From Candidatus Omnitrophota bacterium (GTDB lineage Bacteria; Omnitrophota; Gorgyraeia; Tantalellales; Tantalellaceae): a stretch of 64,000 bases of DNA. Positions 12,823-47,189 of this stretch are shown piece after piece (within the stretch, counting starts at the first letter, position 1; every line of letters starts with the position of its first letter). The notes beneath the pieces are model-generated. The model had not been told where the DNA came from. It saw only the letters and a list, made by a program, of their open reading frames with translations, and did no database searches. The position numbers and the translations under genes are program-made. Location: contig JBAROK010000092.1 in the NCBI GenBank assembly GCA_049642065.1, positions 17,613-81,612 on the forward strand, written 5' to 3'.

Positions 12823-12854
12823 TTTAAGCTATTAAGCTTTGGAATGATCATGCA

Positions 12855-13060
12855 GGTAACCGCAAGGTTTTAATTGGGAAGTCCGTGAAAGTCGGACACG
12901 GTCCCGCCGCTGTTACCGGAGACGAAAGCTTCAAGCCAGGTCACTGCCTTTAAGAGGTGGGAAGGCCGAAGCGAGTAGGTAGACCCGGGAGTCAGAAGAC
13001 CTACCTGTGTGTTAAGAAGTATCCTGAATGCCCGAGGAGGCGAGAGGTACAGAATATAAG
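12855..13060 (+). promoter_or_regulatory. cobalamin (B12) riboswitch aptamer
   Basis: Conserved core ttaattgggaagtccgtgaaagtcggacacggtcccgccgctgt, GGGAAGGC element and B12-box-like gagtcagaagacctacc. Located in the 5' leader of a TonB-dependent receptor gene. Confidence 0.85.
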
Positions 13061-13141: not shown

Positions 13142-15166
13142 ATGAAGAAGGGGAGAGTGTTTTTGAAATTTATTATTGTAGGGGTGTGTCTTTTATTATG
13201 TGTCTCGGCGCGAGTAAAGGCAGATGATGCGGGTGTAGTCAAACTGGATACGATATACATAACGCCCATGCGTTCGGACGAGCTTGAAAGCAAAACACCT
13301 GCAAGTGTATCGGTAGTTACGCGAAAAGATATCGAGAATTCAAATGCGCAGACCACCATTGGGCTGCTTAAGTCCGAGACCGGTATATTTGTCAAGGACT
13401 GGGTAGGGAACGGATCGACCGCTCAAGTGGATATACGCGGGTTCGGTGAACAGTCTCAGTTAAACGTTGCTGTTCTGGTGGATGGCCGGCGTGTTAACGA
13501 GGTGGACTTAAGCGGAGTTGACTGGACGCAGATTCCAGTGGACCAGATAGAGAGGATAGAAATAATACGCGGTGGTGCAGGTGCCGTACTTTATGGAGAC
13601 AACGCTGTTAGCGGTGTTATCAATATCATTACAAAAAGCGGTAAGGGAACGCCATACGTCAAGTACACCCAGAGGTATGGTAGTTACGATATGAACGAGG
13701 AAAAAGTGGAAGTAGGCGGAGAAGTTGAGAACCTGAGCTTTATCCTTACGGGTGGACGTAAAGCTACGCACGGGTACCGCAACAACACGTATTTCAGGAA
13801 CTGGGATTTCGCTTCAAAACTCATTTATGAAGTGGATCCCGAGTTTTCTCTGAAAGTGAGCCAATCCTGGCATAAGGCGGAATACGGTCTTCCCGGAGCG
13901 CTTTCAGCCGCTGATCAGGAAGCACACGATCGCACATTCTCCTCTTTCGGTGACGATTATGCGAAGAACACGGACTGGAATTTTGTCGGTGGGTTCGACA
14001 AAACTTTCGGCGATGGGGGTACTCTGTCTTCTGATTTCTCTTACAGGAGGAGATATGTTTACTCTAATTACGTGGGAGCGAACGGTGGCTGGAAACCCAT
14101 AAGGAGGGCAACGATAGACACTTACGGGATAACGCCAAAATATGTCTTGGATAGGAATATTTTCGGTTTCATTAACAACTTCGTCACGGGGCTTGATTAC
14201 TACCGGGAAGAGAACGATTCGGATGTTTTCAACGCGGCAAATACGATACAGAATATCACTGCCGTTAAAAAGAATACGATTGCGTGGTACGGGCAGGATT
14301 CTTTTTCTGTATTGCCGGAACTTACGTTTGTCGGAGGGATGCGGTACGAATATGCTAAATACGATTTGGATTACCAAGATCTTTCTGGATGGAACCCTAC
14401 TATAGATACCGATAAGATCAAGGTCGCCAGGATGTACAACCTAGGGCTTATATGCGAGTACATGGAAAATTCAGAAGTGTTCTTTACTCATAACCTTAGT
14501 TTTCGATTCCCCGCGACCGATGAGTACATAGTATGGGGAGCTCTTAATCCTAACCTCAAGGAGCAGATATCAAGGAACTACGAGGTAGGGGTGCGGCAGG
14601 CAATAGGAGATATCGCCAGGATAGATATAACTGGCTATTGGATGAACCTAAAGAACGAGCTATACTATAATCCGTTGGGCGGGGCTTTCGGTAGGGGTTC
14701 TAACGAGAACTATGGTAAAACCCGGCATCAGGGACTTGAAATGTCTGCAAAAGCGAAAGTGAATAAGAATATAGAGCTTTTTGGTAACTATGCTTTTACT
14801 TATTCAAAGTTCGTGGACGATACATATAGCGGTAAGTACGTCCCGATGGTCCCGCTTAATAAGGGGGCTTTGGGTATGAGACTGTTCTTTTTAGAGAACT
14901 TTACTTTCAATTTTGTAGGACTGTTCGTAGGAGAAAGACATTGTATAAATGACCAGCAGAACATATATAAACCGCTTAAGCCGTATTTTACGGCTGATAT
15001 TAATCTTTTCTACGAAAACGAACATTTCAGGGTAGGAGGGGGCGTGAATAACCTCTTCAATGAGAAGTATTATAATTACAGCGTACGTAACGCTACCAAT
15101 GGAAGGATAAATTATTATCCAGCTCCGGGAATGAACTTCTTTCTGGAAGGGACGCTTAAGTTCTGA
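13142..15166 (+). CDS. btuB: TonB-dependent outer-membrane receptor, BtuB-like (cobalamin/corrinoid uptake inferred from riboswitch)
   Basis: Signal peptide. TonB-box-like DTIYITPMR. Plug-domain and barrel motifs. C-terminal aromatic residue F. 674 aa. Confidence 0.8.
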   Translation: MKKGRVFLKFIIVGVCLLLCVSARVKADDAGVVKLDTIYITPMRSDELESKTPASVSVVTRKDIENSNAQTTIGLLKSETGIFVKDWVGNGSTAQVDIRGFGEQSQLNVAVLVDGRRVNEVDLSGVDWTQIPVDQIERIEIIRGGAGAVLYGDNAVSGVINIITKSGKGTPYVKYTQRYGSYDMNEEKVEVGGEVENLSFILTGGRKATHGYRNNTYFRNWDFASKLIYEVDPEFSLKVSQSWHKAEYGLPGALSAADQEAHDRTFSSFGDDYAKNTDWNFVGGFDKTFGDGGTLSSDFSYRRRYVYSNYVGANGGWKPIRRATIDTYGITPKYVLDRNIFGFINNFVTGLDYYREENDSDVFNAANTIQNITAVKKNTIAWYGQDSFSVLPELTFVGGMRYEYAKYDLDYQDLSGWNPTIDTDKIKVARMYNLGLICEYMENSEVFFTHNLSFRFPATDEYIVWGALNPNLKEQISRNYEVGVRQAIGDIARIDITGYWMNLKNELYYNPLGGAFGRGSNENYGKTRHQGLEMSAKAKVNKNIELFGNYAFTYSKFVDDTYSGKYVPMVPLNKGALGMRLFFLENFTFNFVGLFVGERHCINDQQNIYKPLKPYFTADINLFYENEHFRVGGGVNNLFNEKYYNYSVRNATNGRINYYPAPGMNFFLEGTLKF

Positions 15167-33811: not shown

Positions 33812-34711
33812 ATGAAACTTACCGTAATAGGATCAACAGCACTGGACAGTATAGAGACGCCTTTCGGCAAGAAGAAAGATATACTGGGTGGGTCGGCTAC
33901 TTACTCTTCTATAAGCGCGTCTTTTTTTGCCCCGGTTAACCTTATAAGCGTTGTAGGCGCGGATTTTCCCCAGAAATACATCCGTCTTTTCGAGAAAAGA
34001 AGTATAGACACTACGGGCCTTGAGCAGAAAAAAGGTAAAACCTTTCGCTGGAAGGCTAAGTATCATTATGACATGAGCTATGCCGAGACTTTGGACACGA
34101 AACTCGGTGTTTTCAATGGTTTCAGGCCGGTTATACCATCCAACGTGAGCCCTAAGACAAATCTTCTTTTAGCGAATATAGATCCTGAACTTCAAAGTTA
34201 TATCTTTCATCAGATAAAGCCTACGGGTCTTGTTGCGTGCGATACCATGAACCATTGGATATCAACCAGTAAGAAGGCGCTGGTGAGATTACTTAAGAAA
34301 GTGGATCTATTTTTGTTGAATGATGCTGAAGCGCGTCAGCTTTCAGGGGAGACTAATCTTTTGGAAGCGGCAAGATTTATATCCTCAAAGGGTGCGAAGA
34401 TGACGGTGATCAAGAAGGGGGAGCATGGTGCACTTTTCTTTTCCAAGGGGTTGCGTTTTATGGTTCCCGCATACCTTCTTGAGACGATAAAAGACCCGAC
34501 TGGGGCGGGGGATACGTTTGCCGGCGGTATGCTGGGATATCTGTCAAAGTACCCGAAGCTTACCGACAAGGTCTTGAGGCGGGCTCTTGTCTATGGCAGT
34601 ATAATGGCTTCTTTTGCAGTGGAAAGATTTTCTGCAGACGGGCTATTGAAAACAAAACCTGCGGATATAAAGAAGCGGGTTAAACACTTTGAAAAGTTAA
34701 CTAAATTCTAG
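33812..34711 (+). CDS. PfkB/ribokinase-family carbohydrate or small-molecule kinase
   Basis: N-terminal GG motif (ILGGSATY). C-terminal anion-hole DPTGAGDTFAGGM. Confidence 0.75.
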   Translation: MKLTVIGSTALDSIETPFGKKKDILGGSATYSSISASFFAPVNLISVVGADFPQKYIRLFEKRSIDTTGLEQKKGKTFRWKAKYHYDMSYAETLDTKLGVFNGFRPVIPSNVSPKTNLLLANIDPELQSYIFHQIKPTGLVACDTMNHWISTSKKALVRLLKKVDLFLLNDAEARQLSGETNLLEAARFISSKGAKMTVIKKGEHGALFFSKGLRFMVPAYLLETIKDPTGAGDTFAGGMLGYLSKYPKLTDKVLRRALVYGSIMASFAVERFSADGLLKTKPADIKKRVKHFEKLTKF

Positions 34712-34784
34712 CGAGTGTAGTACAATGGCAGTACACCAGCTTCCCAAGCTGGCTACGGGGGTTCGATTCCCCTCACTCGCTCCA
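34711..34784 (+). tRNA. tRNA-Gly (anticodon CCC), CCA-encoded
   Basis: Cloverleaf read by eye: acceptor GCGAGTG/CACTCGC, D-stem GTAC, anticodon stem CCAGC/GCTGG with loop TTCCCAA, T-arm GGGGG-TTCGATT-CCCCT, discriminator T, then CCA. Confidence 0.85.
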
Positions 34785-35240: not shown

Positions 35241-35546
35241 ATGAAGATTTTATTGGTTTTGCTAATGGCTATGGCGCTTGTGTGCGCGTATGCTGCTCCC
35301 GGTATGGCAGGAAAAGCTGACAATCCGGTAACCAACGTGGTTACAGGTTCGGTAAATACCGTGGGTAAGGCCGCAGAAGGGACGGTCAAGACAGTAGCCG
35401 CTCCTGTGGAGGCGCTGGGTGACTCCATGAAAGGCGAGGGCACCCCAGACAAAATAATAACGGGTCCTGTTGAAAAAGGTGGCGAAACAGTGTATGATGC
35501 TACGGTAAATACAGGCAAGACCGTCACTGGCCAAAAAGTGGAATGA
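35241..35546 (+). CDS. small secreted Gly/Thr/Val-rich repeat protein, paralog 1
   Basis: RBS ggaaggagg. Signal peptide. Two internal ~30-aa repeats (V.TG.VNT.GK..EGT.KT). Its paralog follows directly downstream. Confidence 0.6.
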   Translation: MKILLVLLMAMALVCAYAAPGMAGKADNPVTNVVTGSVNTVGKAAEGTVKTVAAPVEALGDSMKGEGTPDKIITGPVEKGGETVYDATVNTGKTVTGQKVE

Positions 35547-35600: not shown

Positions 35601-35915
35601 ATGAAGAGGGCAGTTGTACTTGTTCTAGTCATAGCCTTAGTATGTGCTTACGCGATGCCCGCAGTCGCACAAGAAAAGGCGAAAGACCCGGTAGAGTATT
35701 CGGGTAACGTGGTCACCGGAACGGTGAACACGGTTGGCAAAGCCACCGAAGGCACCGCTAAGACCGCAGTAAGCCCGATAGTGGCTTTCTGGAACGCCAT
35801 AACCGGCAAAGGTAAACCAGAAAATGTAGTTACCGATCCGGTTAACGAAGGCGGCAAAACGGTATACAATGCCAGCGTAAATACTGGCAAAACGGTTACC
35901 GGACAGAAACAATAA
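35601..35915 (+). CDS. small secreted Gly/Thr/Val-rich repeat protein, paralog 2
   Basis: Same architecture as paralog 1, including the C-terminal VNTGKTVTGQK. Confidence 0.6.
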   Translation: MKRAVVLVLVIALVCAYAMPAVAQEKAKDPVEYSGNVVTGTVNTVGKATEGTAKTAVSPIVAFWNAITGKGKPENVVTDPVNEGGKTVYNASVNTGKTVTGQKQ

Positions 35916-37905: not shown

Positions 37906-37988
37906 GGGCATGAAAATAAGATTAGACATTGAATAATTTAAAGGAATGCGTTAAAATACAAAAAAGTTATAACTGATCTGATGGGAGT

Positions 37989-39239
37989 ATGTCCATGAAC
38001 GGTTTTACGTTCTCTACTATAGGTGAAGCTCTAAAAAATATGGCTATAGGTGCGGTTATAGAGGCCATCAGAAAAGGCCAGAGAGTACTTATCAGTGACA
38101 CTACCTTAGGGGACGGGGAGCAGGCACCCGGGTCTAGTCTGAACCCTCAGCAGAAGCTTGCTATCGCAAAACAGCTTGATAAACTCGGAGTAGATACGAT
38201 AGAAGCCGGGTTTCCCGGATCCTCTGAACTGGAATATGAAGGAGTAGAGCTCGTAGCCAAGAACATAAAAAGGCCAACGATTTCCGTTCTTTCCAGATGT
38301 ATGAAAAGCGATATAGATGCAGCCGTGCAGTCTCTTGAAAAAGCGAAGAACTGGGGGTTGGCGCTTTTCATAGGGACTTCTCCCAAACTTCGCCAGTTCA
38401 GCCTGGACAATAAATCCCAGGATGAAATTATCGAAACACTGACCGATGCAATCAAATACGCTAAAAAGTATACAGACAGTATTGCTTTCGGGGCGGAAGA
38501 CGCCACTAGGACAGAACCTGAGTTTCTGTACAGGGTCTATGAAGCGGCTATAGATAGCGGGGCGGTTGTTATAGGGGTCCCGGATACGGTCGGGTGGCTC
38601 ATTCCTGAAGAGACCGCCAGCCTCATGGAGAAGATAAAACAGAACGTTCCGAACATAAAAAAAGCGCTCATAGGAGTACATTTCCATAATGACCTTGGTT
38701 TGGCGGTAGCTAATACTCTGACGGCGATCAGGCACGGGGCGAATATAGTCCAGTGTACGATAAACGGTATCGGCGAGAGAGCCGGGAACACCTCGCTGGA
38801 AGAGTTTGTAATGGCGCTTAAGACCAGAGAAGACGTATATAACATCAAGACTAACGTAAACACCAAAGAGCTTTATGCTACAAGCAAGCTAGTAGCAGAG
38901 CATACCGGGATGCACGTGGCGCCCAACAAAGCCGTGGTTGGGGATAATGTTTTCGCGACAGAAGCGGGAATGCACCAAGTGGCACTTTTAAAGGAAAGGT
39001 CAACGTACGAGATAATCGCGCCGGAAGAGGTTGGACAACTTGACACTACGTTGTTTCTGGGTAGACATTCTGGTAAACATATGGTTTTGTATAAATTGAA
39101 CGAAGCAGGTATCAAGCTAGATGATGTTAAGGACCAGAAAAAAATAGACTTAATATACCAGAAGTTCAAGGAGCTGGCTTTAACGAAAAAGAAGGTGGAA
39201 GACGAGGAGCTTATAAATATCGCAAGGGCGGTGATATAG
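37989..39239 (+). CDS. short LeuA/HMGL-family synthase (2-isopropylmalate / homocitrate / citramalate synthase-like, no regulatory domain)
   Basis: DRE-TIM barrel motifs LGDGEQAPG and HFHNDLGLAVANTL. 416 aa. Confidence 0.75.
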   Translation: MSMNGFTFSTIGEALKNMAIGAVIEAIRKGQRVLISDTTLGDGEQAPGSSLNPQQKLAIAKQLDKLGVDTIEAGFPGSSELEYEGVELVAKNIKRPTISVLSRCMKSDIDAAVQSLEKAKNWGLALFIGTSPKLRQFSLDNKSQDEIIETLTDAIKYAKKYTDSIAFGAEDATRTEPEFLYRVYEAAIDSGAVVIGVPDTVGWLIPEETASLMEKIKQNVPNIKKALIGVHFHNDLGLAVANTLTAIRHGANIVQCTINGIGERAGNTSLEEFVMALKTREDVYNIKTNVNTKELYATSKLVAEHTGMHVAPNKAVVGDNVFATEAGMHQVALLKERSTYEIIAPEEVGQLDTTLFLGRHSGKHMVLYKLNEAGIKLDDVKDQKKIDLIYQKFKELALTKKKVEDEELINIARAVI

Positions 39240-39320
39240 CATGCAGGCAGCGCAGCATGTCTTTAATCCGTTAATCCCGCTGCTTTTTACGGTGGGAACC
39301 AAAAAGGAAAGGCTTACATT

Positions 39321-40301
39321 ATGAAAAACCTTGTGACCGGTGCTTCAGGATTTATCGGTAGCCATATAGCTGAAGCTCTCAAAAAACGCGGTGTAGAAGT
39401 GATCGCGCTGGTACGTACTACCAGTAAGGTCGATTTTCTTAAAGAGATCGGCGTGGAGCTCAGGTACGGTGAGCTTAACGATCTGGATTCTTTGAAAGAA
39501 GCGCTTAAGGGAATCGACAGGATATATCATTCTGCCGCTTTAGCCGATGAATGGATCTCGCCCGAAGTAGCCCATAAAATAAACGTTGAAGGTACAAGAA
39601 ACCTTCTTGAAGCTGCCAGACAGCATAACGTGGGACGGGTTGTATACGTAAGTTCACTTGCCGTTCTTGGTATGCATGATCATCATGGTACACCGGCTGA
39701 TTCACCTTACCAGAAAAGCGGAGATCCTTATATAGACTCAAAGATCGATTCTGAGCAGCTGGCCCGCGATTATAACCGGGGATATGGGCTTCCCGTTACT
39801 GTAGTGCGGCCGGGTTTCGTGTTCGGCCCCAGGGATAATAAATTCATTCCGCGCGTTCTGGAAAAGATCAAAGAGAACCGGTTCATGTTCGTCGGTAGCG
39901 GCAAGAACAAGATAAATGCTGTCTATATAGAGAACCTTACCGATGCAATACTGCGGGCAGGCGATTCCGACAAAGCCATGGGGCAAGTTTATAACGTTAC
40001 GAATGACAGTGGGATGGATATACAAACTTTCATATATAAAGTGTCCGATGTGTGGGGTATTGATAGACCCGTTAAACATATACCGAAAGCGATTGCGTTT
40101 TTTATGTGTCAGTTGCTTGAAGGATGGGCGAGGATGACACATTCGGACAAACCGCCATACATAACGAAGACCAGGATCAAGCTTCTTACCCTGAACCTTG
40201 ATTTTGATATCGATAAGACTAGAAAAGAACTGGGGTATGAACCGCTGGTTAATATTGAAGATGGCCTGAAAAGAACAAGGAACTGGATGGATGCCCGGTG
40301 A
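39321..40301 (+). CDS. NAD-dependent epimerase/dehydratase (extended SDR)
   Basis: GASGFIGSHIAEAL Rossmann motif. YIDSK catalytic YxxxK. Confidence 0.8.
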   Translation: MKNLVTGASGFIGSHIAEALKKRGVEVIALVRTTSKVDFLKEIGVELRYGELNDLDSLKEALKGIDRIYHSAALADEWISPEVAHKINVEGTRNLLEAARQHNVGRVVYVSSLAVLGMHDHHGTPADSPYQKSGDPYIDSKIDSEQLARDYNRGYGLPVTVVRPGFVFGPRDNKFIPRVLEKIKENRFMFVGSGKNKINAVYIENLTDAILRAGDSDKAMGQVYNVTNDSGMDIQTFIYKVSDVWGIDRPVKHIPKAIAFFMCQLLEGWARMTHSDKPPYITKTRIKLLTLNLDFDIDKTRKELGYEPLVNIEDGLKRTRNWMDAR

Positions 40302-41124
40302 GTTGAAGAACTACAGAGCAGCTGATGGTACGGACATCTACTATCGCCAATGGAATAGTGACAGCGATAGAGGGGTGATTGTCTATCTGCACGGTATAAA
40401 GAGCCATACGGGATGGTTTGCTGATACTGCTGATAAGCTTAATCAGCGCGGGTTCACGATCTATGCTCTTGAAAGAAGGGGTTCCGGTGTTAATAAGACA
40501 GATCGTGGCTATGTTGAGAACTATAATGTGCTTATCGATGATTTGAAAGGAGCACTGGAACTGGTAAAGAAAGAGAATCCTGGCAAGAAAGTCTATCTGA
40601 TGGGTTTATGCTGGGGCGGAAAACTTGCTGTTGCGTTTGCTAGCCTTTGGCAGGATATGATAGACGGGCTGATACTCGTCACCCCGGCGATAAAGGCCAG
40701 AGTGGATCTTACCTTTCCACAGAAACTGGACGTTTTGGTAAGCAATTTCATACGTCCCCGAAAGCTTTTCAATATCCCTATAGAAGATGAACTTTTTACG
40801 AAGAACCCGAAATATCTCGAATTTATCAAAAGCGACCAGCTGAAACTCACGAAAGCTACAGCGAGGTTCTTTTTTGAGACCGCTATGCTGGATATGTACA
40901 ATAACGGGGCAGCACCAAAGATAACTGTGCCGATTCTTTTGCTTCTTGCCGGGAACGATCTTGTGGTGAATACGGTAGAGGTACGAAGATGGTTCGGCAA
41001 AACAAGCACTAATGATAAAACATTAAAGATCTACGAGGGGTCATGCCACAGTTTAGAGTTCGAGGATGAGGCAAAAGATCTTGTGGAGGATATCACTGGG
41101 TGGGCGGATGAGCACAAGGGTTAA
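40291..41124 (+). CDS. alpha/beta hydrolase (lysophospholipase-like) with Cys in the nucleophile elbow
   Basis: Hydrolase_4-like fold. The elbow reads GLCWGG, where GxSxG is expected. Overlaps neighbours on both sides. Confidence 0.65.
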   Translation: MPGELKNYRAADGTDIYYRQWNSDSDRGVIVYLHGIKSHTGWFADTADKLNQRGFTIYALERRGSGVNKTDRGYVENYNVLIDDLKGALELVKKENPGKKVYLMGLCWGGKLAVAFASLWQDMIDGLILVTPAIKARVDLTFPQKLDVLVSNFIRPRKLFNIPIEDELFTKNPKYLEFIKSDQLKLTKATARFFFETAMLDMYNNGAAPKITVPILLLLAGNDLVVNTVEVRRWFGKTSTNDKTLKIYEGSCHSLEFEDEAKDLVEDITGWADEHKG

Positions 41125-42229
41125 GAAGATAGACATACTGGAAGTTGAACTTCCGTTCAAAAGGGCTTTTAAACACGCACAGCATGAGAGAAAAAGCTCT
41201 GGTTCGGTTTTTGTTAGGATACATCTTGAGGATGGTACAACGGGGTACGGAGAAGCTCTTCCCAGAGAATATGTAACTGGTGAAGACCCCTCTATGGTGA
41301 GCAAGAAGCTTCTTAACGGATCTTTGACGGGTCTTGTGAGGGTTGAGTTTTTATCTTTAGAGGACGCCGCGGATTTTATGCGCGGGAAGGAAGATCTTGA
41401 TGGACCTGCCAGGTGTGCGGTAGAACTTGCCCTATTGGATGCTGTCGGAAAGTGTTATGGCGAATCGGTTCGGTTGGTCTTGGGAGACAATGTCGCCAGC
41501 GAAGTTTATTACAGCGGTGTTATTTCCGCAGGAAGCACAGCTTCGGCTGCTATGGACGCACTAAAGTTCAAGTTGTACGGGTTCGGTCAGGTGAAAGTAA
41601 AAGTAGGTCTTAAGGACGATATCGAGAGACTTCGTGCGATCAGAGGTATACTGGGAGCTAATGTGGATCTCAGGGTAGACGCTAATTGCGCGTGGAGTGA
41701 AGATGAAGCAATAGACAGAATAGCAAAGCTGAGGCAGTTTGGTGTAAGTGCGGTAGAACAGCCCGTAAGAGCTACAGATATCAAGGGTCTCAAGAAAGTG
41801 ACTGGATCTGTTGCGGAACGGATCATAGCTGACGAATCGATATGTACCATAGACGATGCTCGGGAGCTGGCTGCGGAAAAAGCTTGTAACATGTTTAATA
41901 TTCGCCTGTCAAAATGTGGTGGCCTCCTCAACGCGCTTGAGATAGTCCGTATTGCCCGAGAGAACTCCATCAGTTACCAATTAGGTTGTCAGGTAGGCGA
42001 ATCCGGCGTCCTTTCAGCGGCTGGGAGACATTTCGCGTGTTGCGTGGAGGACATAGAATATTTCGAAGGCTCCTACGGCAGGCATCTTCTGAAGGAAGAC
42101 GTAACAAAAGAGGATACGACCTTTGGCCGTAAAGGAAGGGCGGTTTCTTTAGATGGTCCCGGGCTGGGAGTCAGTGTCGCAGATAATGTGCTTGAAAAGT
42201 ATGCTGTTAGAATCTCAACTATAGAATAG
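41108..42229 (+). CDS. enolase-superfamily enzyme, MR/MLE subgroup (dipeptide epimerase / N-acyl amino acid racemase-like)
   Basis: KVKVG (KxK) motif. Metal-ligand Asp/Glu/Asp pattern (DANCAW, ..EQP.., ADES). About 374 aa. Confidence 0.75.
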   Translation: MSTRVKKIDILEVELPFKRAFKHAQHERKSSGSVFVRIHLEDGTTGYGEALPREYVTGEDPSMVSKKLLNGSLTGLVRVEFLSLEDAADFMRGKEDLDGPARCAVELALLDAVGKCYGESVRLVLGDNVASEVYYSGVISAGSTASAAMDALKFKLYGFGQVKVKVGLKDDIERLRAIRGILGANVDLRVDANCAWSEDEAIDRIAKLRQFGVSAVEQPVRATDIKGLKKVTGSVAERIIADESICTIDDARELAAEKACNMFNIRLSKCGGLLNALEIVRIARENSISYQLGCQVGESGVLSAAGRHFACCVEDIEYFEGSYGRHLLKEDVTKEDTTFGRKGRAVSLDGPGLGVSVADNVLEKYAVRISTIE

Positions 42230-42246
42230 CTAAGAGGTGAACTAGC

Positions 42247-43905
42247 ATGAATATACTTTATTATACGTTGAAGATTTTGGTACCCAAGGTATTGATGTTC
42301 GAAGAAACTACTAAAGATCCCATGAAGTCGCAGGAGAAAGTGCTTTTTGAGTATCTTAAACGTAACAAGCATACTGAGTACGGAGGCAGGCACAATTTTG
42401 CCGGAATCAAATCTATAGAGGATTACCGCAAGAACGTTCCTTTGAACGACTATCTTTCACTTGAGCAGTATATCGAAAAGATGAAAAAAGGCGAGGATAA
42501 CATACTTACTGTAGATAAGCCTATACTTTTCGGGACAACGAGCGGGACAACCGGTCGCCAGAAATACATCCCCGTAACGGAATATTCGCGTGTAAAGAAA
42601 ATAGATCTTATGGATCTGTGGGTGTATTACATATCTAAGGATCATCCCGATATATTTGATGGTAAGATACTGGCAATAGTAAGTCCGGAAGTCGAGGGTT
42701 ACACTGAGTCAGGTGTCGCTTACGGAGCGGAGTCGGGTCATGGTTACAGGAACATGACAGACGTTGTAAAGTCCCTATATGTTCTGCCGTACGAAGTACT
42801 CGACATAAAAGATTACGACTCTAAATATTATTGCATATTACGTCTGGCGTTAATGGAGAAAGTGACAACCATTGCCAGTATGAATCCGAGTACAATAGTG
42901 CTTTTATGTCAGAAACTTAACGAGTTGAAAGATGACCTTATCAAGGATATCGATAACGGTACTTTAAAAGAGGATCTTAAGATTTCCAGTGAGCTGCGCG
43001 CAATGCTGGAAGAACGGCTAGAACCGGCCCCAGAAAGGGCAGTGGAATTAAGGCTTATTTTTTGTGAGAAGAAAGAGCTTTTGCCGAAAGAGGTGTGGCC
43101 GAAGATACAGCTTATTGAGTGTTGGAAGGGTGGTACCGTAGGTGTTTATTTAAAAGAGTTCCCCAAATATTTTGGTGAGGTGCCAATAAGGGATTTTGGT
43201 TACCTGGCTAGTGAATTGAGAGGATCGGTCCCCATAACTGATGAAGGCGCGGGAGGGATACTGGCGATAAATTCGAATTTTTACGAATTCATCCCTAAAG
43301 AGGATATGGGCAAAAGGGAGAAGAGGGTGCTACTTTGCGATCAGCTAAAAGAAGGCGAAGAATACTTTATAATAATTACGACTCCTGCCGGTCTTTACAG
43401 ATATAACATTGATGATATCGTCCGGGTCACGGGCTTTTTTAATAAAACGCCCGTAATAGAGTTCGTGCAGAAAGGTCTTAATGTTACCTCAGTTACAGGA
43501 GAAAAACTTTACGAATCTCAGGTTTGTGAAGCCGTACATAAAGCGGTGGATCATCTTGATGTGCCGATAAAGTTTTTTACCGCATGCGTGCAGAGCGGTA
43601 GCCCTTTTTGTTATCAATTTCTCGTGGAATTCATGCAGAACCCACCGTCCCAGAAAAAAGAAGAGTTCATAAAGTTTGTGGATGAGGAGCTGTGTCGGTT
43701 GAACTGTGAGTATGAAACAAAGAGGAAATCACAAAGACTGTCCCATCCGGTGCTTAAAGTCGTAAAGAACGGAGAGTTTGATAAGTACCGTAAAAAGAGG
43801 GTAGATGAAGGCGCTCATGATGGCCAGTTCAAGATATGTGAGCTGACCTGTTCTATGGATTTTCACGAACATTTCGATATTGAAGAGCATATTACTATCG
43901 ATTAA
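42247..43905 (+). CDS. GH3-family acyl-acid amido synthetase (adenylate-forming)
   Basis: GTTSGTTGRQKYIP P-loop-like motif. About 550 aa with typical GH3 length and motifs. Confidence 0.75.
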   Translation: MNILYYTLKILVPKVLMFEETTKDPMKSQEKVLFEYLKRNKHTEYGGRHNFAGIKSIEDYRKNVPLNDYLSLEQYIEKMKKGEDNILTVDKPILFGTTSGTTGRQKYIPVTEYSRVKKIDLMDLWVYYISKDHPDIFDGKILAIVSPEVEGYTESGVAYGAESGHGYRNMTDVVKSLYVLPYEVLDIKDYDSKYYCILRLALMEKVTTIASMNPSTIVLLCQKLNELKDDLIKDIDNGTLKEDLKISSELRAMLEERLEPAPERAVELRLIFCEKKELLPKEVWPKIQLIECWKGGTVGVYLKEFPKYFGEVPIRDFGYLASELRGSVPITDEGAGGILAINSNFYEFIPKEDMGKREKRVLLCDQLKEGEEYFIIITTPAGLYRYNIDDIVRVTGFFNKTPVIEFVQKGLNVTSVTGEKLYESQVCEAVHKAVDHLDVPIKFFTACVQSGSPFCYQFLVEFMQNPPSQKKEEFIKFVDEELCRLNCEYETKRKSQRLSHPVLKVVKNGEFDKYRKKRVDEGAHDGQFKICELTCSMDFHEHFDIEEHITID

Positions 43906-43940
43906 ATAATATATATCGTTTTTTTTTTTTTTTTTTGAGT

Positions 43941-43970
43941 CCCCTTGATTAGCGTCAAGGGGATTTTTTT
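43941..43970 (+). terminator. intrinsic terminator preceded by a T18 homopolymer
   Basis: T18 at 43919-43936, stem CCCCTTGA/TCAAGGGG with loop TTAGCG, then ATTTTTTT. Confidence 0.75.
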
Positions 43971-44751: not shown

Positions 44752-44965
44752 TGCGGTAAAGAAAGGCAAGCTCAAGGAGCCTTTTTCGGAGGACGATTTT
44801 CGCGAAGCGTGTCCCGGGTTCGGTGATGGAACCTATTATGCCTATCTTTATAAACACAGAGCTGGCAATCCGGGTGGATACGAGGCGTTTTTTAAGCTTG
44901 TATCCACCCGTACTTTTAAGCTGGTAAGACCGATTAAAAAGAACCAGTTTCCTAAAAATTTATAA
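44717..44965 (+). CDS. hypothetical small basic protein (82 aa)
   Basis: ORF overlaps the channel gene 3' end by 35 nt. No recognisable motif. Confidence 0.3.
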   Translation: MAGKKVYKAIVDAVKKGKLKEPFSEDDFREACPGFGDGTYYAYLYKHRAGNPGGYEAFFKLVSTRTFKLVRPIKKNQFPKNL

Positions 44966-44977
44966 TAAGAATATTGA

Positions 44978-45154
44978 GTATCCCGCCAAAGCATCTTTAA
45001 AAGGGTAGGGGTGAGTAAGTTCCTTTCTCACGTTCTTCGGCATGATCCTGAAAAAAGCGGACTAAAGCCTAGCGAAGAAGGATTCGTGCATTTTAATGAT
45101 GCGATAAGTGTTCTCAAGCGCAGGTTTAAAGGATTTCTGATGAAGAGATTTTAA
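44978..45154 (+). pseudogene. kptA: remnant of RNA 2'-phosphotransferase gene (Tpt1/KptA N-terminal fragment)
   Basis: In-frame translation ...VSKFLSHVLRHDPEKSGLKPSEEGFVHFNDAISVLKRR matches the KptA N-terminal motif SKFLS.VLRH.PE.(I)GL..D..G(W). No Met start. Stops after about 58 codons; full length would be about 180 aa. Confidence 0.6.
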
Positions 45155-45403
45155 GCTTTTTGATTTATCTATTAATGATTATACGGTCAAACGCAAAAAA
45201 TCCAAAGCAGATGTACGGAAATTTAACGAGGAAAGGTTGCCGCGAAGAGCAGAACAGTTTTCAGGTCATTTTTCCGACACGCTACAAAGCCTTATTTTCA
45301 AGGGTTTTAGCTTCTCCTAATTTGAATGACGTAAGGTGCTTTAATGTCAAGGAATATTTCTGCCCCTTGGGCTTACAATACGGAAAAAATCTTTTTTCCG
45401 TTG

Positions 45404-45432
45404 TTGACAATAAAATACAAAAATATATAATA
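45404..45432 (+). promoter_or_regulatory. sigma70-like promoter in AT-rich spacer upstream of ATPase gene
   Basis: TTGACA (45404-45409), 16-17 nt, then TATAAT/ATAATA (45426-45432). Confidence 0.4.
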
Positions 45433-45554
45433 TTCTTCGCGATCAGTAATTATATAGTTGTTTATTTTATATAGATTTTTTATAAGCGGGAGAGAGGATA
45501 GTGTTTTTGTGATTCTCTCGACCGTTTCAATTCATCTTCATTATATAGAACGTT

Positions 45555-47189
45555 ATGTTCATAGAACCAGTTTTTGGTAAAAAATTTTTCGGACGAGAAG
45601 AAGTCCTTGCAACTCTTCATAAGAGGGTTACGGCATTAAAGGGAGGGTATAGGCAGAACCTTGCACTTACCGGACCGATGCTTGCGGGCAAATCTTCCGT
45701 TCTGCGTCATTTCCTGATGAACGTCAAGGATTCCGACGTGATACCTCTCTATATCGAGATGGGGGAAGAAGACTTCAATAATTTCTGCACCCGTTTCATG
45801 GCGTCTCTTCTTTACAGGTACCTGAAATCAAAAGGGGAAAAAGCCGAAGGAGATTTCAAAGAGCTTAAAAAGGTGTGCCGGCCACAGATACCTCAGACCA
45901 TGAGTTGCGTTGATCAAGTATGCAAAGCGCTTAAACAGCGCAAAGATAACGACGCGTATGAAACTCTTCTCGAAATTACTTCTACTTTCAAGACAGAGAC
46001 CGGGAAGAGCTGCATAGTTATTCTGGATGAGTTTCATAACCTATCGAATTTTTCGCTTAAAAGGCCCTTTCAGACCTTTGGAAAGTTCATAATGGTTCAG
46101 AAGAGCACTATGTACATAGTGTCCAGTTCCCAGAAATCTCTTTTGAAAGAGATCCTTTCCAATAAACTATCGCTTCTTTTTGGGAATTTCGAAGTGATAG
46201 AGGTTAATGGATTTGATAACCAGACGGCCCGTTCTTTCATCTCGGACAAGATTGAGAATGCCGATTCTTGTGAGAATATACGCAACTATCTTATACAGAT
46301 TTCCCAAGGCAGTCCATTTTACCTGGAAACTTTGGCAGGCAGGTTCTCGGAACTTGTAAAAAATTGCCGCGAAAAAAGTGACGCGAAAGAATGTCTCTTG
46401 GATGCCTTTGCAGATCTTCTTTATGAATCCAGTGGGCTACTTAACCAGTATTTCGAGAACAGTGTGAACTTTTTTCTGGAGAAGAGGTCCCGGAAAAAGT
46501 TCATACCCATACTTATTTCGTTGGCTAGAGGTAACAGCACGATAAAGGCTATACAGGAGGACTTGGGCAAGACGGATAAAGATCTGGGGCAAAAGCTCCA
46601 GAAACTCCAGGATATGGATCTGGTGCATAATAGCGGTATTTTCTACAAGATAGCCGACAAACTTTTTGAGTACTGGCTTAAGTGCGTTTACAGCATGAAA
46701 ACCCGCACTATGATAGACGACATGGATATCAAGTATCTGGAGTTTAAGCGCATGTTCGAGGAAGATTACCAGAAATATTGTGAGTTCAACTCCAAGAGCA
46801 TCGTAGACGTTATTTCGGATCTATTCAGCAGTTTCGGCGGCGAAAAGGTACAGATCAGCATGAACGACCGGAAAATGCCTCGGTTTGAGAAAGTAGAAGT
46901 TAGCCCATTCGGTGAGAATGTGTTCCAAATAACAGGCAGCGTGAAGAACAAGAAATGGATCTGTCACGTTAAAACAGGCGATATCACCGAAGAATACGAC
47001 ATCTGTAATCTTTGGGATCTTAAGTCCCAAAAAGATAAGGATAAGATAGCAAGAAAGATCTTCATTCCGCTTAAAGGCATAGAACAAAATGCGTTCCTTC
47101 TGGCCAAAGAACAGAATATCTGGGTTTGGGACACGCAGCAACTTAATAAGATACTCCGTTTGTTCGGAAAATTCGAGCTGGTATTATGA
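45555..47189 (+). CDS. AAA ATPase of the PF01637/Orc1-like (archaeal-ATPase) type with C-terminal nuclease-like (DUF234-like) region
   Basis: N-terminal FFGREEVL signature. Walker A GPMLAGKSS, Walker B CIVILDEFH. 544 aa. C-terminal ~150 aa (..EYDICNLWDLKSQKDK..) is unassigned. Confidence 0.65.
   Translation: MFIEPVFGKKFFGREEVLATLHKRVTALKGGYRQNLALTGPMLAGKSSVLRHFLMNVKDSDVIPLYIEMGEEDFNNFCTRFMASLLYRYLKSKGEKAEGDFKELKKVCRPQIPQTMSCVDQVCKALKQRKDNDAYETLLEITSTFKTETGKSCIVILDEFHNLSNFSLKRPFQTFGKFIMVQKSTMYIVSSSQKSLLKEILSNKLSLLFGNFEVIEVNGFDNQTARSFISDKIENADSCENIRNYLIQISQGSPFYLETLAGRFSELVKNCREKSDAKECLLDAFADLLYESSGLLNQYFENSVNFFLEKRSRKKFIPILISLARGNSTIKAIQEDLGKTDKDLGQKLQKLQDMDLVHNSGIFYKIADKLFEYWLKCVYSMKTRTMIDDMDIKYLEFKRMFEEDYQKYCEFNSKSIVDVISDLFSSFGGEKVQISMNDRKMPRFEKVEVSPFGENVFQITGSVKNKKWICHVKTGDITEEYDICNLWDLKSQKDKDKIARKIFIPLKGIEQNAFLLAKEQNIWVWDTQQLNKILRLFGKFELVL

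Follow-up and report, generated by a model that had tools for sequence, protein, structure and literature searches.

A Conserved Hydrolase–Enolase–GH3 Gene Block in an Omnitrophota Genome and Its Possible Role in N-Acyl Amino Acid Formation

Introduction

Enzymes of the muconate lactonizing enzyme (MLE) subgroup of the enolase superfamily are found in bacterial systems that handle N-acyl amino acids. In the Geobacillus N-succinyl-amino-acid racemase system and in DgcN/DgcA, such an enzyme acts on the α-carbon of an N-acyl amino acid, and the acylating and deacylating enzymes are encoded nearby. Acylation there relies on GNAT acyltransferases with succinyl- or acetyl-coenzyme A (CoA), and deacylation on metallo-amidohydrolases. 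The OleABCD olefin/β-lactone pathway comprises a Claisen condensing enzyme, the short-chain dehydrogenase/reductase (SDR) OleD, an adenylating enzyme and an α/β hydrolase. In the planctomycete Singulisphaera acidiphila, the GH3 enzyme OlsH uses ATP and free fatty acids to N-acylate ornithine, and a second acyl chain is attached by the α/β hydrolase OlsI; OlsH is, as of 2025, the sole bacterial GH3 member characterised so far (PMC12493201). TyzC, a member of the nitroreductase family, modifies N-acyl tyrosine (PMC12479983). The present analysis concerns a 64,000-nucleotide stretch of contig JBAROK010000092.1 from a Candidatus Omnitrophota bacterium (assembly GCA_049642065.1), referred to below as the window, in which genes for an extended SDR, an α/β hydrolase with a cysteine nucleophile, an enolase-superfamily enzyme and a predicted GH3 ligase follow one another.

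A sequence-only reading of the window had described these genes as a four-gene overlapping operon and had assigned it to a small-molecule conjugate pathway rather than to housekeeping. Judging by gene order across genomes, the four genes are a functionally linked block with a conserved core of three, namely hydrolase, enolase and GH3; however, the transcription unit probably consists of five genes and includes an upstream LeuA-like synthase gene. An amide conjugate still fits as the product, but a fatty-acyl or lipid-type conjugate is favoured over a generic small molecule. The module most likely makes a modified N-acyl amino acid, that is, a lipoamino-acid- or aminolipid-type envelope amphiphile. 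This assignment of chemistry draws on family membership and context, and it is put forward tentatively, with a confidence that falls a little short of even. Literature searches turned up no account of a module that combines GH3, enolase and hydrolase, nor of an Omnitrophota GH3.

Conservation of the Block

The sequence-only reading had taken overlapping gene boundaries as a sign of co-translation. The overlaps are present (11 nt between SDR and hydrolase genes, 17 nt between hydrolase and enolase genes, followed by a 17-nt gap before GH3), but they do not set these genes apart. The window has 55 pairs of neighbouring genes on the same strand; 34 of them are spaced by 20 nt or less and 14 overlap, with a median of 12 nt, and gene overlap was rejected as operon evidence. 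Because tight spacing is the norm in the window, the case for linkage is one of cross-genome conservation.

A genome-neighbourhood comparison had been proposed as a check, and it supports linkage. Many Omnitrophota genomes and metagenome contigs share the order SDR–hydrolase–enolase–GH3, with protein identities of 37–66%. The shorter order hydrolase>enolase>GH3, which is the window architecture and is called type I here (among loci L002–L050), occurs in Omnitrophota (L002–L009, L021, L026, L035, L044, L046, L114), in a metagenome-assembled genome (MAG) of Thermodesulfobacteriota (L016), and in a Gaiellaceae-type Actinomycetota contig and a similar metagenome contig (L025, L029). Outside Omnitrophota, the SDR and LeuA-like genes are dropped, and hydrolase, enolase and GH3 stay together. 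By this comparison the SDR is an accessory of some lineages and lies outside the evolutionary core. The metagenome loci were annotated by tblastn, as greedy calling of open reading frames (ORFs) mis-called genes on high-GC loci. Forty metagenome enolase loci had at least 1 kb on both sides; the hydrolase was adjacent in 29, GH3 lay directly downstream in 10, and neither was found in 7. Scanning with the orthogroup alignment returned at least 581 enolase relatives in metagenomes.

Two further architectures were observed. Type II loci have the order enolase>hydrolase with no adjacent GH3; they occur on Gemmataceae-type and related contigs (L024, L027, L028, L037–L108), usually with a gene for a NicO/DsbD_2-like membrane protein on the upstream side and one for an ABC-2 permease on the downstream side. 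In three of them, a second hydrolase–GH3 pair lies 4–8 kb away, once beside a ketoacyl synthase. The protein of about 500 residues encoded upstream of planctomycete-type enolase genes was considered as a hidden GH3 and proved to be the NicO/DsbD_2-like membrane protein. In type III loci, the enolase domain is fused to a heme-oxygenase-like iron enzyme (Haem_oxygenas_2), and GH3 is the next gene (L086:9281-11152, L109:1778-3751). A large subset of GH3 enzymes thus travels with a dedicated enolase-family enzyme and a cysteine-nucleophile, lipase-fold hydrolase in several phyla.

Core Enzymes

The last gene of the block encodes a predicted adenylating acyl-acid amido synthetase. The protein has the three-domain architecture of GH3 (N, M and C domains; PF03321, PF23571 and PF23572), with Pfam E-values of 1.5e-82, 1e-24 and 5.8e-22 and scores of 278, 87 and 79 bits (cutoff 23.6 bits in each case). 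The adenylation motifs TSGTTGRQK (residue 98), GYLASE (318) and GLYRYNIDD (382) are all present and align residue for residue with plant JAR1; the family's motifs for nucleotide binding are defined as SSGTSxGxxK, YxSSE and GLYRYxxGD (PMC12493201). Neither of the two observations that the sequence-only reading had named as counting against it, orthologs never linked in other genomes or missing adenylation motifs, was made. The window protein is about equally distant from JAR1 (full-length alignment E 1.8e-39, 139 bits) and from OlsH (142 bits). The OlsH model (NF052613) is the only NCBIfam model matched, at 141.8 bits against a cutoff of 620 bits, which places the protein outside that family; its relatives score 108–144 bits. 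That bacterial GH3 proteins are rare, as had been stated, is not borne out: the family has 6,969 representatives at 50% identity with E ≤ 1e-3, or 1,762 with E ≤ 1e-30, and at least 2,726 clusters were matched at E ≤ 1e-10. The accompanying statement that they are mostly uncharacterised holds (PMC12493201).

In a neighbour-joining tree, GH3 proteins of Omnitrophota fall into two paralog clades, A and B. The window protein belongs to clade A, with 55–58% identity to the upstream clade-A copies and 48–50% to clade B. Many Omnitrophota have the arrangement GH3(A)–small ORF–SDR–hydrolase–enolase–GH3(B) (L002, L003, L005, L006, L007, L009, L035, L046, L047). In the window lineage, the clade-A GH3 occupies the usual place of clade B, and the LeuA-like gene occupies the usual place of GH3(A); a second GH3 paralog was searched for in the 64-kb window and not found. 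Clade-A GH3 genes also occur as lone copies in variable contexts. Examples were seen after LuxE-like and LuxC-like fatty-acyl enzymes (L014:5408-9662), after a serine hydrolase and a long-chain fatty-acid-CoA ligase (L008:5400-9671), and between murA and mreBCD (L022:6721-10868). A cell-wall role suggested by the last arrangement was dropped, since the neighbours of lone GH3 genes are not conserved.

The sequence-only reading had placed the third gene product among the MR/MLE enzymes of the enolase superfamily, and the Pfam match to MR_MLE_C (E 2e-46) agrees. The features of the MLE subgroup are present: a KxK motif at β-2, the D/E/D metal ligands, and a lysine at β-6. The catalytic set K163-x-K165, D191, E217, D242 and K269 is invariant in 11 orthologs from four phyla. 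The full list of orthogroup invariants comprises H23, PREYVTG (52–58, in which E54 varies), K163/K165, D191, E217, D242, R266, K269, E298, E320-G321 and R325, and the orthogroup signature can be written as PREYVTGE, KxK, NxRxSKCGG, VGE and EG. Across phyla, orthologs are 39–64% identical to the window protein.

The closest structures in the PDB are dipeptide epimerases (3jva and 1jpm, E 1e-39), and N-succinyl-amino-acid racemase 2p88 is also matched. In dipeptide epimerases, the DxD motif at the end of β-8 binds the α-ammonium group of the substrate. This motif is replaced in the whole orthogroup by E320-G321-x, so that 'FDFD' of YkfB aligns with 'FEGS'. The replacement fits a substrate with an acylated amine and argues against a free α-ammonium group. 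The invariant glutamate presumably resembles the β-8 acid of muconate lactonizing enzyme. Membership in several named families was considered and rejected. The enzyme is not a canonical dipeptide (L-Ala-D/L-Glu) epimerase, with DxD absent and NCBIfam epimerase models scoring 84–132 bits against cutoffs of 343–500. The muconate/chloromuconate cycloisomerase (TIGR02534; 164 bits, cutoff 335) and o-succinylbenzoate synthase (TIGR01928; 94 bits, cutoff 201) models were likewise missed, and the match to the N-acetyl-D-Glu racemase model DgcA, at 116 bits, is also below cutoff.

The second gene product matches Hydrolase_4 in Pfam (E 1.4e-46). Its GLCWGG elbow, read earlier as carrying cysteine where serine is expected, is real: Cys107 aligns with the nucleophilic serine of GHSMGG in human monoglyceride lipase (MGL), and Asp223 and His253 complete the triad. 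Modelling of the protein had been suggested as a check. In the AlphaFold2 model (predicted local distance difference test 96.6), Cys107 lies between strand 101–106 and helix 108–119, which is the canonical nucleophile elbow. Foldseek comparison with the MGLs of M. tuberculosis, human, yeast and an archaeon gave TM-scores of 0.85–0.92 with the cap domain included. The protein therefore has an MGL-like α/β hydrolase fold, in which GLCWGG takes the place of the GxSxG serine motif. In orthologs, His253 is invariant and Asp223 is at least 90% conserved. Membership in the dienelactone hydrolase family (PF01738) was rejected: only residues 81–128 around the elbow match, at 38 bits, and the whole protein is closest to MGLs. 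OlsI membership (NF052614, cutoff 385 bits) was rejected as well, with no match of the window hydrolase at E ≤ 0.01 and 32.7 bits for a serine-type relative in L027.

The identity of the nucleophile follows the genomic partner. Cysteine is found in 17 of 18 type I loci with an adjacent GH3 and in five of six truncated type I loci; all 37 type II loci have serine. Omnitrophota have the cysteine motif GLCWGG or GLCLGG, Gaiellaceae-type loci have GGCWGA, and GHCFGA is found both in the Thermodesulfobacteriota MAG and on unassigned metagenome contigs. As cysteine occurs in several motif contexts and phyla, it is regarded as a property of the GH3-linked enzyme form. A serine-to-cysteine switch that tracks GH3 linkage constitutes a clean natural experiment in α/β-hydrolase mechanism. 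In the Thermodesulfobacteriota locus, the longest ORF of the hydrolase ortholog (L016:737-1771) opens with an apparent lipoprotein signal (RRIRRILSCLALLLLFFSGC); the protein would be extracytoplasmic if this start is right.

Accessory Enzymes

The first gene of the block encodes an extended SDR with the YxxxK motif, in agreement with the earlier assignment (PF01370, E 2.6e-46, 158 bits; GASGFIG, a GxxGxxG motif, at residue 7 and YIDSK at residue 137). Orthologs in the same position are 55–66% identical. The nearest NCBIfam models are HpnA, the 2-alkyl-3-oxoalkanoate reductase OleD, and SdmB, all below cutoff; membership in OleD or HpnA was rejected at 181–182 bits against cutoffs of 580 and 368, respectively. 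The best PDB match is 3wj7, followed by sugar dehydratases and NSDHL. The nearest named relatives (OleD, SdmB, NSDHL) act on β-hydroxy or β-keto acids.

The LeuA-like protein matches HMGL-like (E 6.5e-84) and HCS_D2 (E 6.8e-20) in Pfam and is probably a 2-oxoacid/acetyl-CoA condensing enzyme. It is not a canonical LeuA: its score of 504 bits is below the 2-isopropylmalate synthase cutoff of 532 bits in NCBIfam, and the regulatory LeuA_dimer domain (PF08502) is absent. The protein falls in an Omnitrophota paralog clade of about 410 residues, apart from the canonical 500-residue LeuA with PF08502 of the same phylum; it is a dedicated paralog. A LeuA-like gene (58–64% identity) also directly precedes the SDR gene in L021 and L114/L115, where the order is LeuA-like, SDR, (nitroreductase, Mpo1-like), hydrolase, enolase, GH3; the GH3 proteins of these loci are 65% and 59% identical to that of the window, respectively. 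Compared with them, the window version of the block has lost the nitroreductase gene.

The sequence-only reading had set the LeuA-like gene apart from the operon by a weak hairpin. This separation is not upheld: the spacer folds no better than shuffled sequence (z −0.72) and has no U-tract, and the hairpin was ruled out as a terminator. The gene is assigned to the unit because the spacer lacks a terminator, the protein belongs to a distinct paralog clade, and the position is kept in L021 and L114/L115.

Lipid Context

There are five independent indications that the amino-acid conjugate is of a fatty-acyl or lipid type: domain fusions, replacement of the hydrolase, the neighbours of GH3 genes, the fold of the hydrolase, and the precedent of known systems. 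An N-terminal membrane fatty-acid hydroxylase domain (FA_hydroxylase, PF04116) is fused to GH3 in 15 of the best 150 GH3 representatives. One protein, P0371 (L110:2023-5646), joins FA_hydroxylase, GH3 and MR_MLE in a single ORF of 1,207 residues on a real contig, and its enolase domain carries the orthogroup signature. At L111:7001-10658, an FA_hydroxylase–GH3 fusion overlaps an enolase ortholog and is preceded by genes for a P450, a 2-oxoacid_dh-type acyltransferase and a carboxyl methyltransferase.

The hydrolase is missing from two loci in which an acyltransferase adjoins the enolase–GH3 pair. In L086, a type III locus, it is a fusion of an MFS transporter, a PlsC-type acyltransferase and an AMP-binding domain, and in L111 it is the 2-oxoacid_dh-type acyltransferase. 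The MFS–PlsC–AMP-binding combination is the architecture of lysolipid re-acylation systems, and its presence where the hydrolase is missing suggests that the missing function is acyl transfer.

Among the neighbours of close GH3 orthologs (54–59% identity) are other Hydrolase_4 proteins, a long-chain fatty-acid-CoA ligase, and LuxE-like and LuxC-like enzymes for long-chain fatty-acyl groups. Recurring neighbours of the block in other genomes include ABC-2 and MMPL transporters and GT2 plus PMT_2 glycosyltransferases, and nitroreductase genes lie inside it in L021, L030, L031, L100 and L114. In L026, the hydrolase–enolase–GH3 core is flanked by GT2/PMT_2 glycosyltransferases and an ABC transporter. 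GT2 and PMT_2 (ArnT-like GT-C) genes were seen directly flanking the block at L114:15557-19251 and L026:6002-7998; such flanks hint at a polyprenyl-phosphate-sugar-dependent modification of an envelope component.

Proposed Pathway and Alternative Explanations

In the proposed pathway, GH3 would activate a carboxylic acid by adenylation and join it to the amine of an amino acid; the acid is probably of the fatty or hydroxy type. This is what the chemistry of the family and the intact motifs suggest. Enolase-superfamily chemistry needs a carboxylate with an α-proton, which in an N-acyl amino acid is located at the amino-acid α-carbon. The enolase-family enzyme is proposed to act on the GH3 product because that product is the substrate type of its nearest characterised relatives. 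It would remove the α-proton beside the free carboxylate of the amino-acid moiety, with epimerisation to the D form as the expected outcome and β-elimination as a less likely one. The hydrolase would form a thioester acyl-enzyme through its cysteine and either transfer a second acyl group to the conjugate, as OlsI does, or remove one. The SDR and the LeuA-like enzyme may prepare or tailor the acid through β-hydroxy/β-keto chemistry and 2-oxoacid extension, which is the most weakly supported step; in L114, an ApbA-like reductase may join them in supplying or modifying it.

A more specific version of the proposal is doubtful. It holds that the module is a new route to amino-acid lipids, in which the head group is epimerised to D or dehydrated after ATP-dependent N-acylation, in which the enolase-family enzyme acts on a lipid-like N-acyl amino acid, and in which the cysteine hydrolase is a thioester-forming acyltransferase for GH3 products. 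If this is true, bacterial envelope lipids of a new class would exist in Omnitrophota, Actinomycetota, Thermodesulfobacteriota and others. An envelope lipid as the product would also be relevant to membrane biology in Omnitrophota, a phylum that is uncultured and has very small cells. The association itself suggests substrates or reactions for three families with poor annotation: GH3 (amino acids together with fatty or hydroxy acids), the enolase-family enzyme (N-acyl amino acids) and the hydrolase (transfer of an acyl group or cleavage of an amide).

Several points weigh against the lipid-type conjugate. The main internal tension arises from the LeuA-like and ApbA-like (L114) partners, which hint that the acid in Omnitrophota may be a short branched hydroxy-acid (2-oxo/2-hydroxy) and not a long fatty acid. 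Most of the lipid-context evidence comes from relatives at 30–59% identity and not from the window locus, and the transporter and glycosyltransferase genes that adjoin the block in other genomes are absent beside the window operon. The replacement of DxD by E-G-x makes epimerase chemistry uncertain. The cysteine and serine states of the hydrolase largely coincide with two clades, so that their correlation with GH3 reflects few independent switches. Finally, the analogy to OlsH/OlsI is functional only, as both proteins fall short of the respective models.

A cycle of acylation, racemisation and deacylation is an unlikely alternative. GH3 would spend ATP to N-acylate an L- or D-amino acid, the enolase-family enzyme would racemise the N-acyl amino acid, and the cysteine hydrolase, as a stereospecific amidase, would set free the inverted amino acid and return the acid to the cycle. 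The outcome would be amino-acid stereoinversion or D-amino-acid supply or salvage, comparable to the Geobacillus N-succinyl-amino-acid racemase and DgcN/DgcA systems. Each core activity corresponds to one step of such a cycle, the matches of the enolase-family enzyme to DgcA and 2p88 agree with it, and cysteine, a common nucleophile in amide hydrolysis, appears exactly where the amide maker GH3 is linked. However, the hydrolase has the fold of a monoglyceride lipase with a lipid cap, its L016 ortholog carries an apparent lipoprotein signal and would act outside the cytoplasm, and the enzymes that substitute for it in some loci are acyltransferases, not hydrolases. The fatty-acid hydroxylase fusions, together with the SDR, nitroreductase, P450, methyltransferase and acyltransferase genes, fit the tailoring of a product better than a cycle.

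It is distinctly unlikely that the block serves a non-lipid acid pathway. There, the enolase-family enzyme would carry out cycloisomerisation or dehydration, its product would be opened or processed by the hydrolase, and GH3 would conjugate the resulting acid to an amino acid. Models for such a pathway exist in muconate lactonizing enzyme with its cysteine-dependent dienelactone hydrolase and in the order MenH>MenC>MenE, which the order hydrolase>enolase-family>adenylating enzyme mirrors. The best NCBIfam match of the enolase-family enzyme is muconate/chloromuconate cycloisomerase, with weaker matches to o-succinylbenzoate synthases; a glutamate is invariant at the β-8 position; the hydrolase has the local dienelactone hydrolase match around its elbow and weak MenH and PcaD matches; and LeuA-like and ApbA-like partners make small hydroxy-acids. 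Nevertheless, all of these matches are far below family cutoffs, and as a whole the hydrolase is MGL-like, not dienelactone hydrolase-like. No ring-cleavage dioxygenase, MenD, MenF or MenB was seen in about 100 loci, and the fatty-acid-related fusions and neighbours would be left unexplained.

That the block is the planctomycete OlsH/OlsI ornithine-lipid pathway itself, present in a relative within the Planctomycetes–Verrucomicrobia–Chlamydiae (PVC) group, is very improbable: a GH3 and an α/β hydrolase do share one operon of a PVC-group organism, and OlsH is the only model matched by the GH3 protein, but both family thresholds are failed (142 against 620 bits; no OlsI match, and 33 against 385 bits for the serine relative), and neither an enolase partner nor a cysteine nucleophile is part of the described system (PMC12493201). 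Meaningless juxtaposition of unrelated neighbours in a compact genome, which the usual tight spacing and the lone same-clade GH3 copies in varied contexts might suggest, is hardly credible for a block that several phyla share, that persists when the gene order is flipped, and that also occurs as domain fusions.

Organization of the Locus

The features of the locus are collected in Table 1. The ORF listing confirmed the four ORFs with the boundaries given in the sequence-only reading. An alternative, longer ORF for the enolase gene begins at 41066. Orthologs of each of the four proteins align from residues 1–4, and enolase orthologs from residue 3–4 of the form starting at 41108; therefore, the annotated starts are supported, 41108 included. 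The GH3 gene has a canonical ribosome-binding site (aagaggtga) 7 nt ahead of its ATG.

Table 1. Coordinates of genes and transcription signals at the locus (window positions).
Feature	Position	Strand	Basis or remark
LeuA-like synthase gene	37989-39239	+	ends 81 nt upstream of SDR gene
Extended SDR gene	39321-40301	+	ORF listing, Pfam
α/β hydrolase gene, Cys nucleophile	40291-41124	+	ORF listing, Pfam
Enolase-superfamily gene, MLE subgroup	41108-42229	+	ORF listing, Pfam
GH3 ligase gene	42247-43905	+	ORF listing, Pfam
Promoter-like site TTGAAT-17-TAAAAT	37929-37957	+	consensus scan, 9/12 matches; weak evidence
T18 homopolymer, 3' untranslated region	43919-43936	+	read directly
Intrinsic terminator: stem core TCCCCTTGA/TCAAGGGGA, then T7	43937-43970	+	folding vs shuffles

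The five-gene transcript most likely extends from the weak promoter-like site near 37930, within the 83 nt that precede the LeuA-like gene, as far as the terminator at 43970. A consensus scan found no promoter-like site in the spacer 39240-39320. The T18 tract and strong terminator reported after GH3 were both recovered: the hairpin at 43937-43966 followed by T7 has a folding energy of −19 kcal/mol (z −4.34), and none of 200 shuffles was equally stable. The same hairpin was not among the listings of a consensus terminator scan. The T18 tract, located between the GH3 stop codon and the hairpin, is the sole homopolymer of at least 11 nt in the window and has no equivalent 3' of the GH3 orthologs in L001, L020 and L021; it may represent a tract prone to slippage or a feature of the assembly. 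A search of Rfam found no riboswitch or other RNA element controlling the operon. PADLOC gave no defence-system match for the five operon proteins or for the downstream STAND ATPase, and an anti-phage defence role was rejected on this basis.

Surroundings in the Window

Nearly all ORFs in the window (1-64000) lie on the + strand, and every 2-kb bin shows a positive GC skew (0.06–0.23), which is consistent with a leading-strand, co-oriented segment of a very compact genome. Downstream of the operon, the region 44752-47189 contains an 803-nt AT-rich gap with a perfect match to a sigma-70-type promoter (TTGACA-16-TATAAT, 45404-45431), followed by the gene for the STAND/AAA ATPase of 544 residues (ATPase_2, nSTAND1).

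Further upstream, a cobalamin riboswitch (RF00174, 102 bits) at 12837-13022 precedes an ORF of 674 residues at 13142-15166. A tRNA-Gly(CCC) at 34711-34784 begins at the last base of a PfkB-family kinase gene (33812-34711), with the thiamine genes ThiC and ThiD2 just upstream of this site. Two tandem paralogs of about 100 residues (35241-35546 and 35601-35915) have signal-peptide-like N-termini and the repeats VVTG(S/T)VNTVGKA(A/T)EGT; they have no Pfam match and are overlapped by long antisense ORFs.

Comparison with Known Systems

The operon proteins lie outside all characterised sub-families tested, namely OlsH, OlsI, dipeptide epimerase, muconate cycloisomerase, o-succinylbenzoate synthase, OleD, HpnA and LeuA. 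The enolase-family enzyme shares KxK, the D/E/D ligands and the β-6 lysine with dipeptide epimerases (YkfB/YcjG; 1jpm/1tkk, 3jva) at E 1e-39, but identity is about 30%, and their DxD is E-G-S/G/A/C in the whole orthogroup. The hydrolase shares the full-length fold with cap (TM-scores 0.88–0.92) and the triad Asp and His with MGLs (human MGLL, M. tuberculosis Rv0183), whereas identity is only 22–25%, the genomic partners differ, and serine is replaced by cysteine throughout the GH3-linked clade.

At the level of whole systems, the OleABCD pathway contains the same four enzyme types as the window operon. It differs in that the window has a LeuA-type enzyme instead of a thiolase, GH3 instead of OleC, an SDR at 181–182 against 580 bits, and an enolase-family enzyme without counterpart. 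Systems of the TyzABC/stieleriacine type (PMC12479983) resemble the pathway proposed here in that an N-acyl amino acid is formed and then tailored at the α/β carbons of its amino acid, and their clusters encode a nitroreductase-family enzyme, as do five of the related loci (L021, L030, L031, L100 and L114). In those systems, however, a GNAT-type synthase makes the amide and no enolase or hydrolase takes part, while the window has no nitroreductase. Compared with the racemase systems of Geobacillus and DgcN/DgcA, the enolase-family enzyme in the window is partnered by an ATP-dependent GH3 and a cysteine-nucleophile, lipase-fold hydrolase, and its scores against racemase models are below cutoff.

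Functionally, the nearest system is OlsH/OlsI. Differences from it are the position of the window proteins outside the family thresholds, the cysteine nucleophile, the obligate enolase partner, the attached SDR and LeuA-like synthase, and the lack of an OlsG methyltransferase. What the two would have in common is a PVC-group host and a bacterial GH3 with conserved nucleotide motifs that uses ATP, and neither CoA nor acyl carrier protein, to form an N-acyl amino acid, next to an adjoining α/β hydrolase that handles an acyl group, a role that is predicted for the window enzyme.

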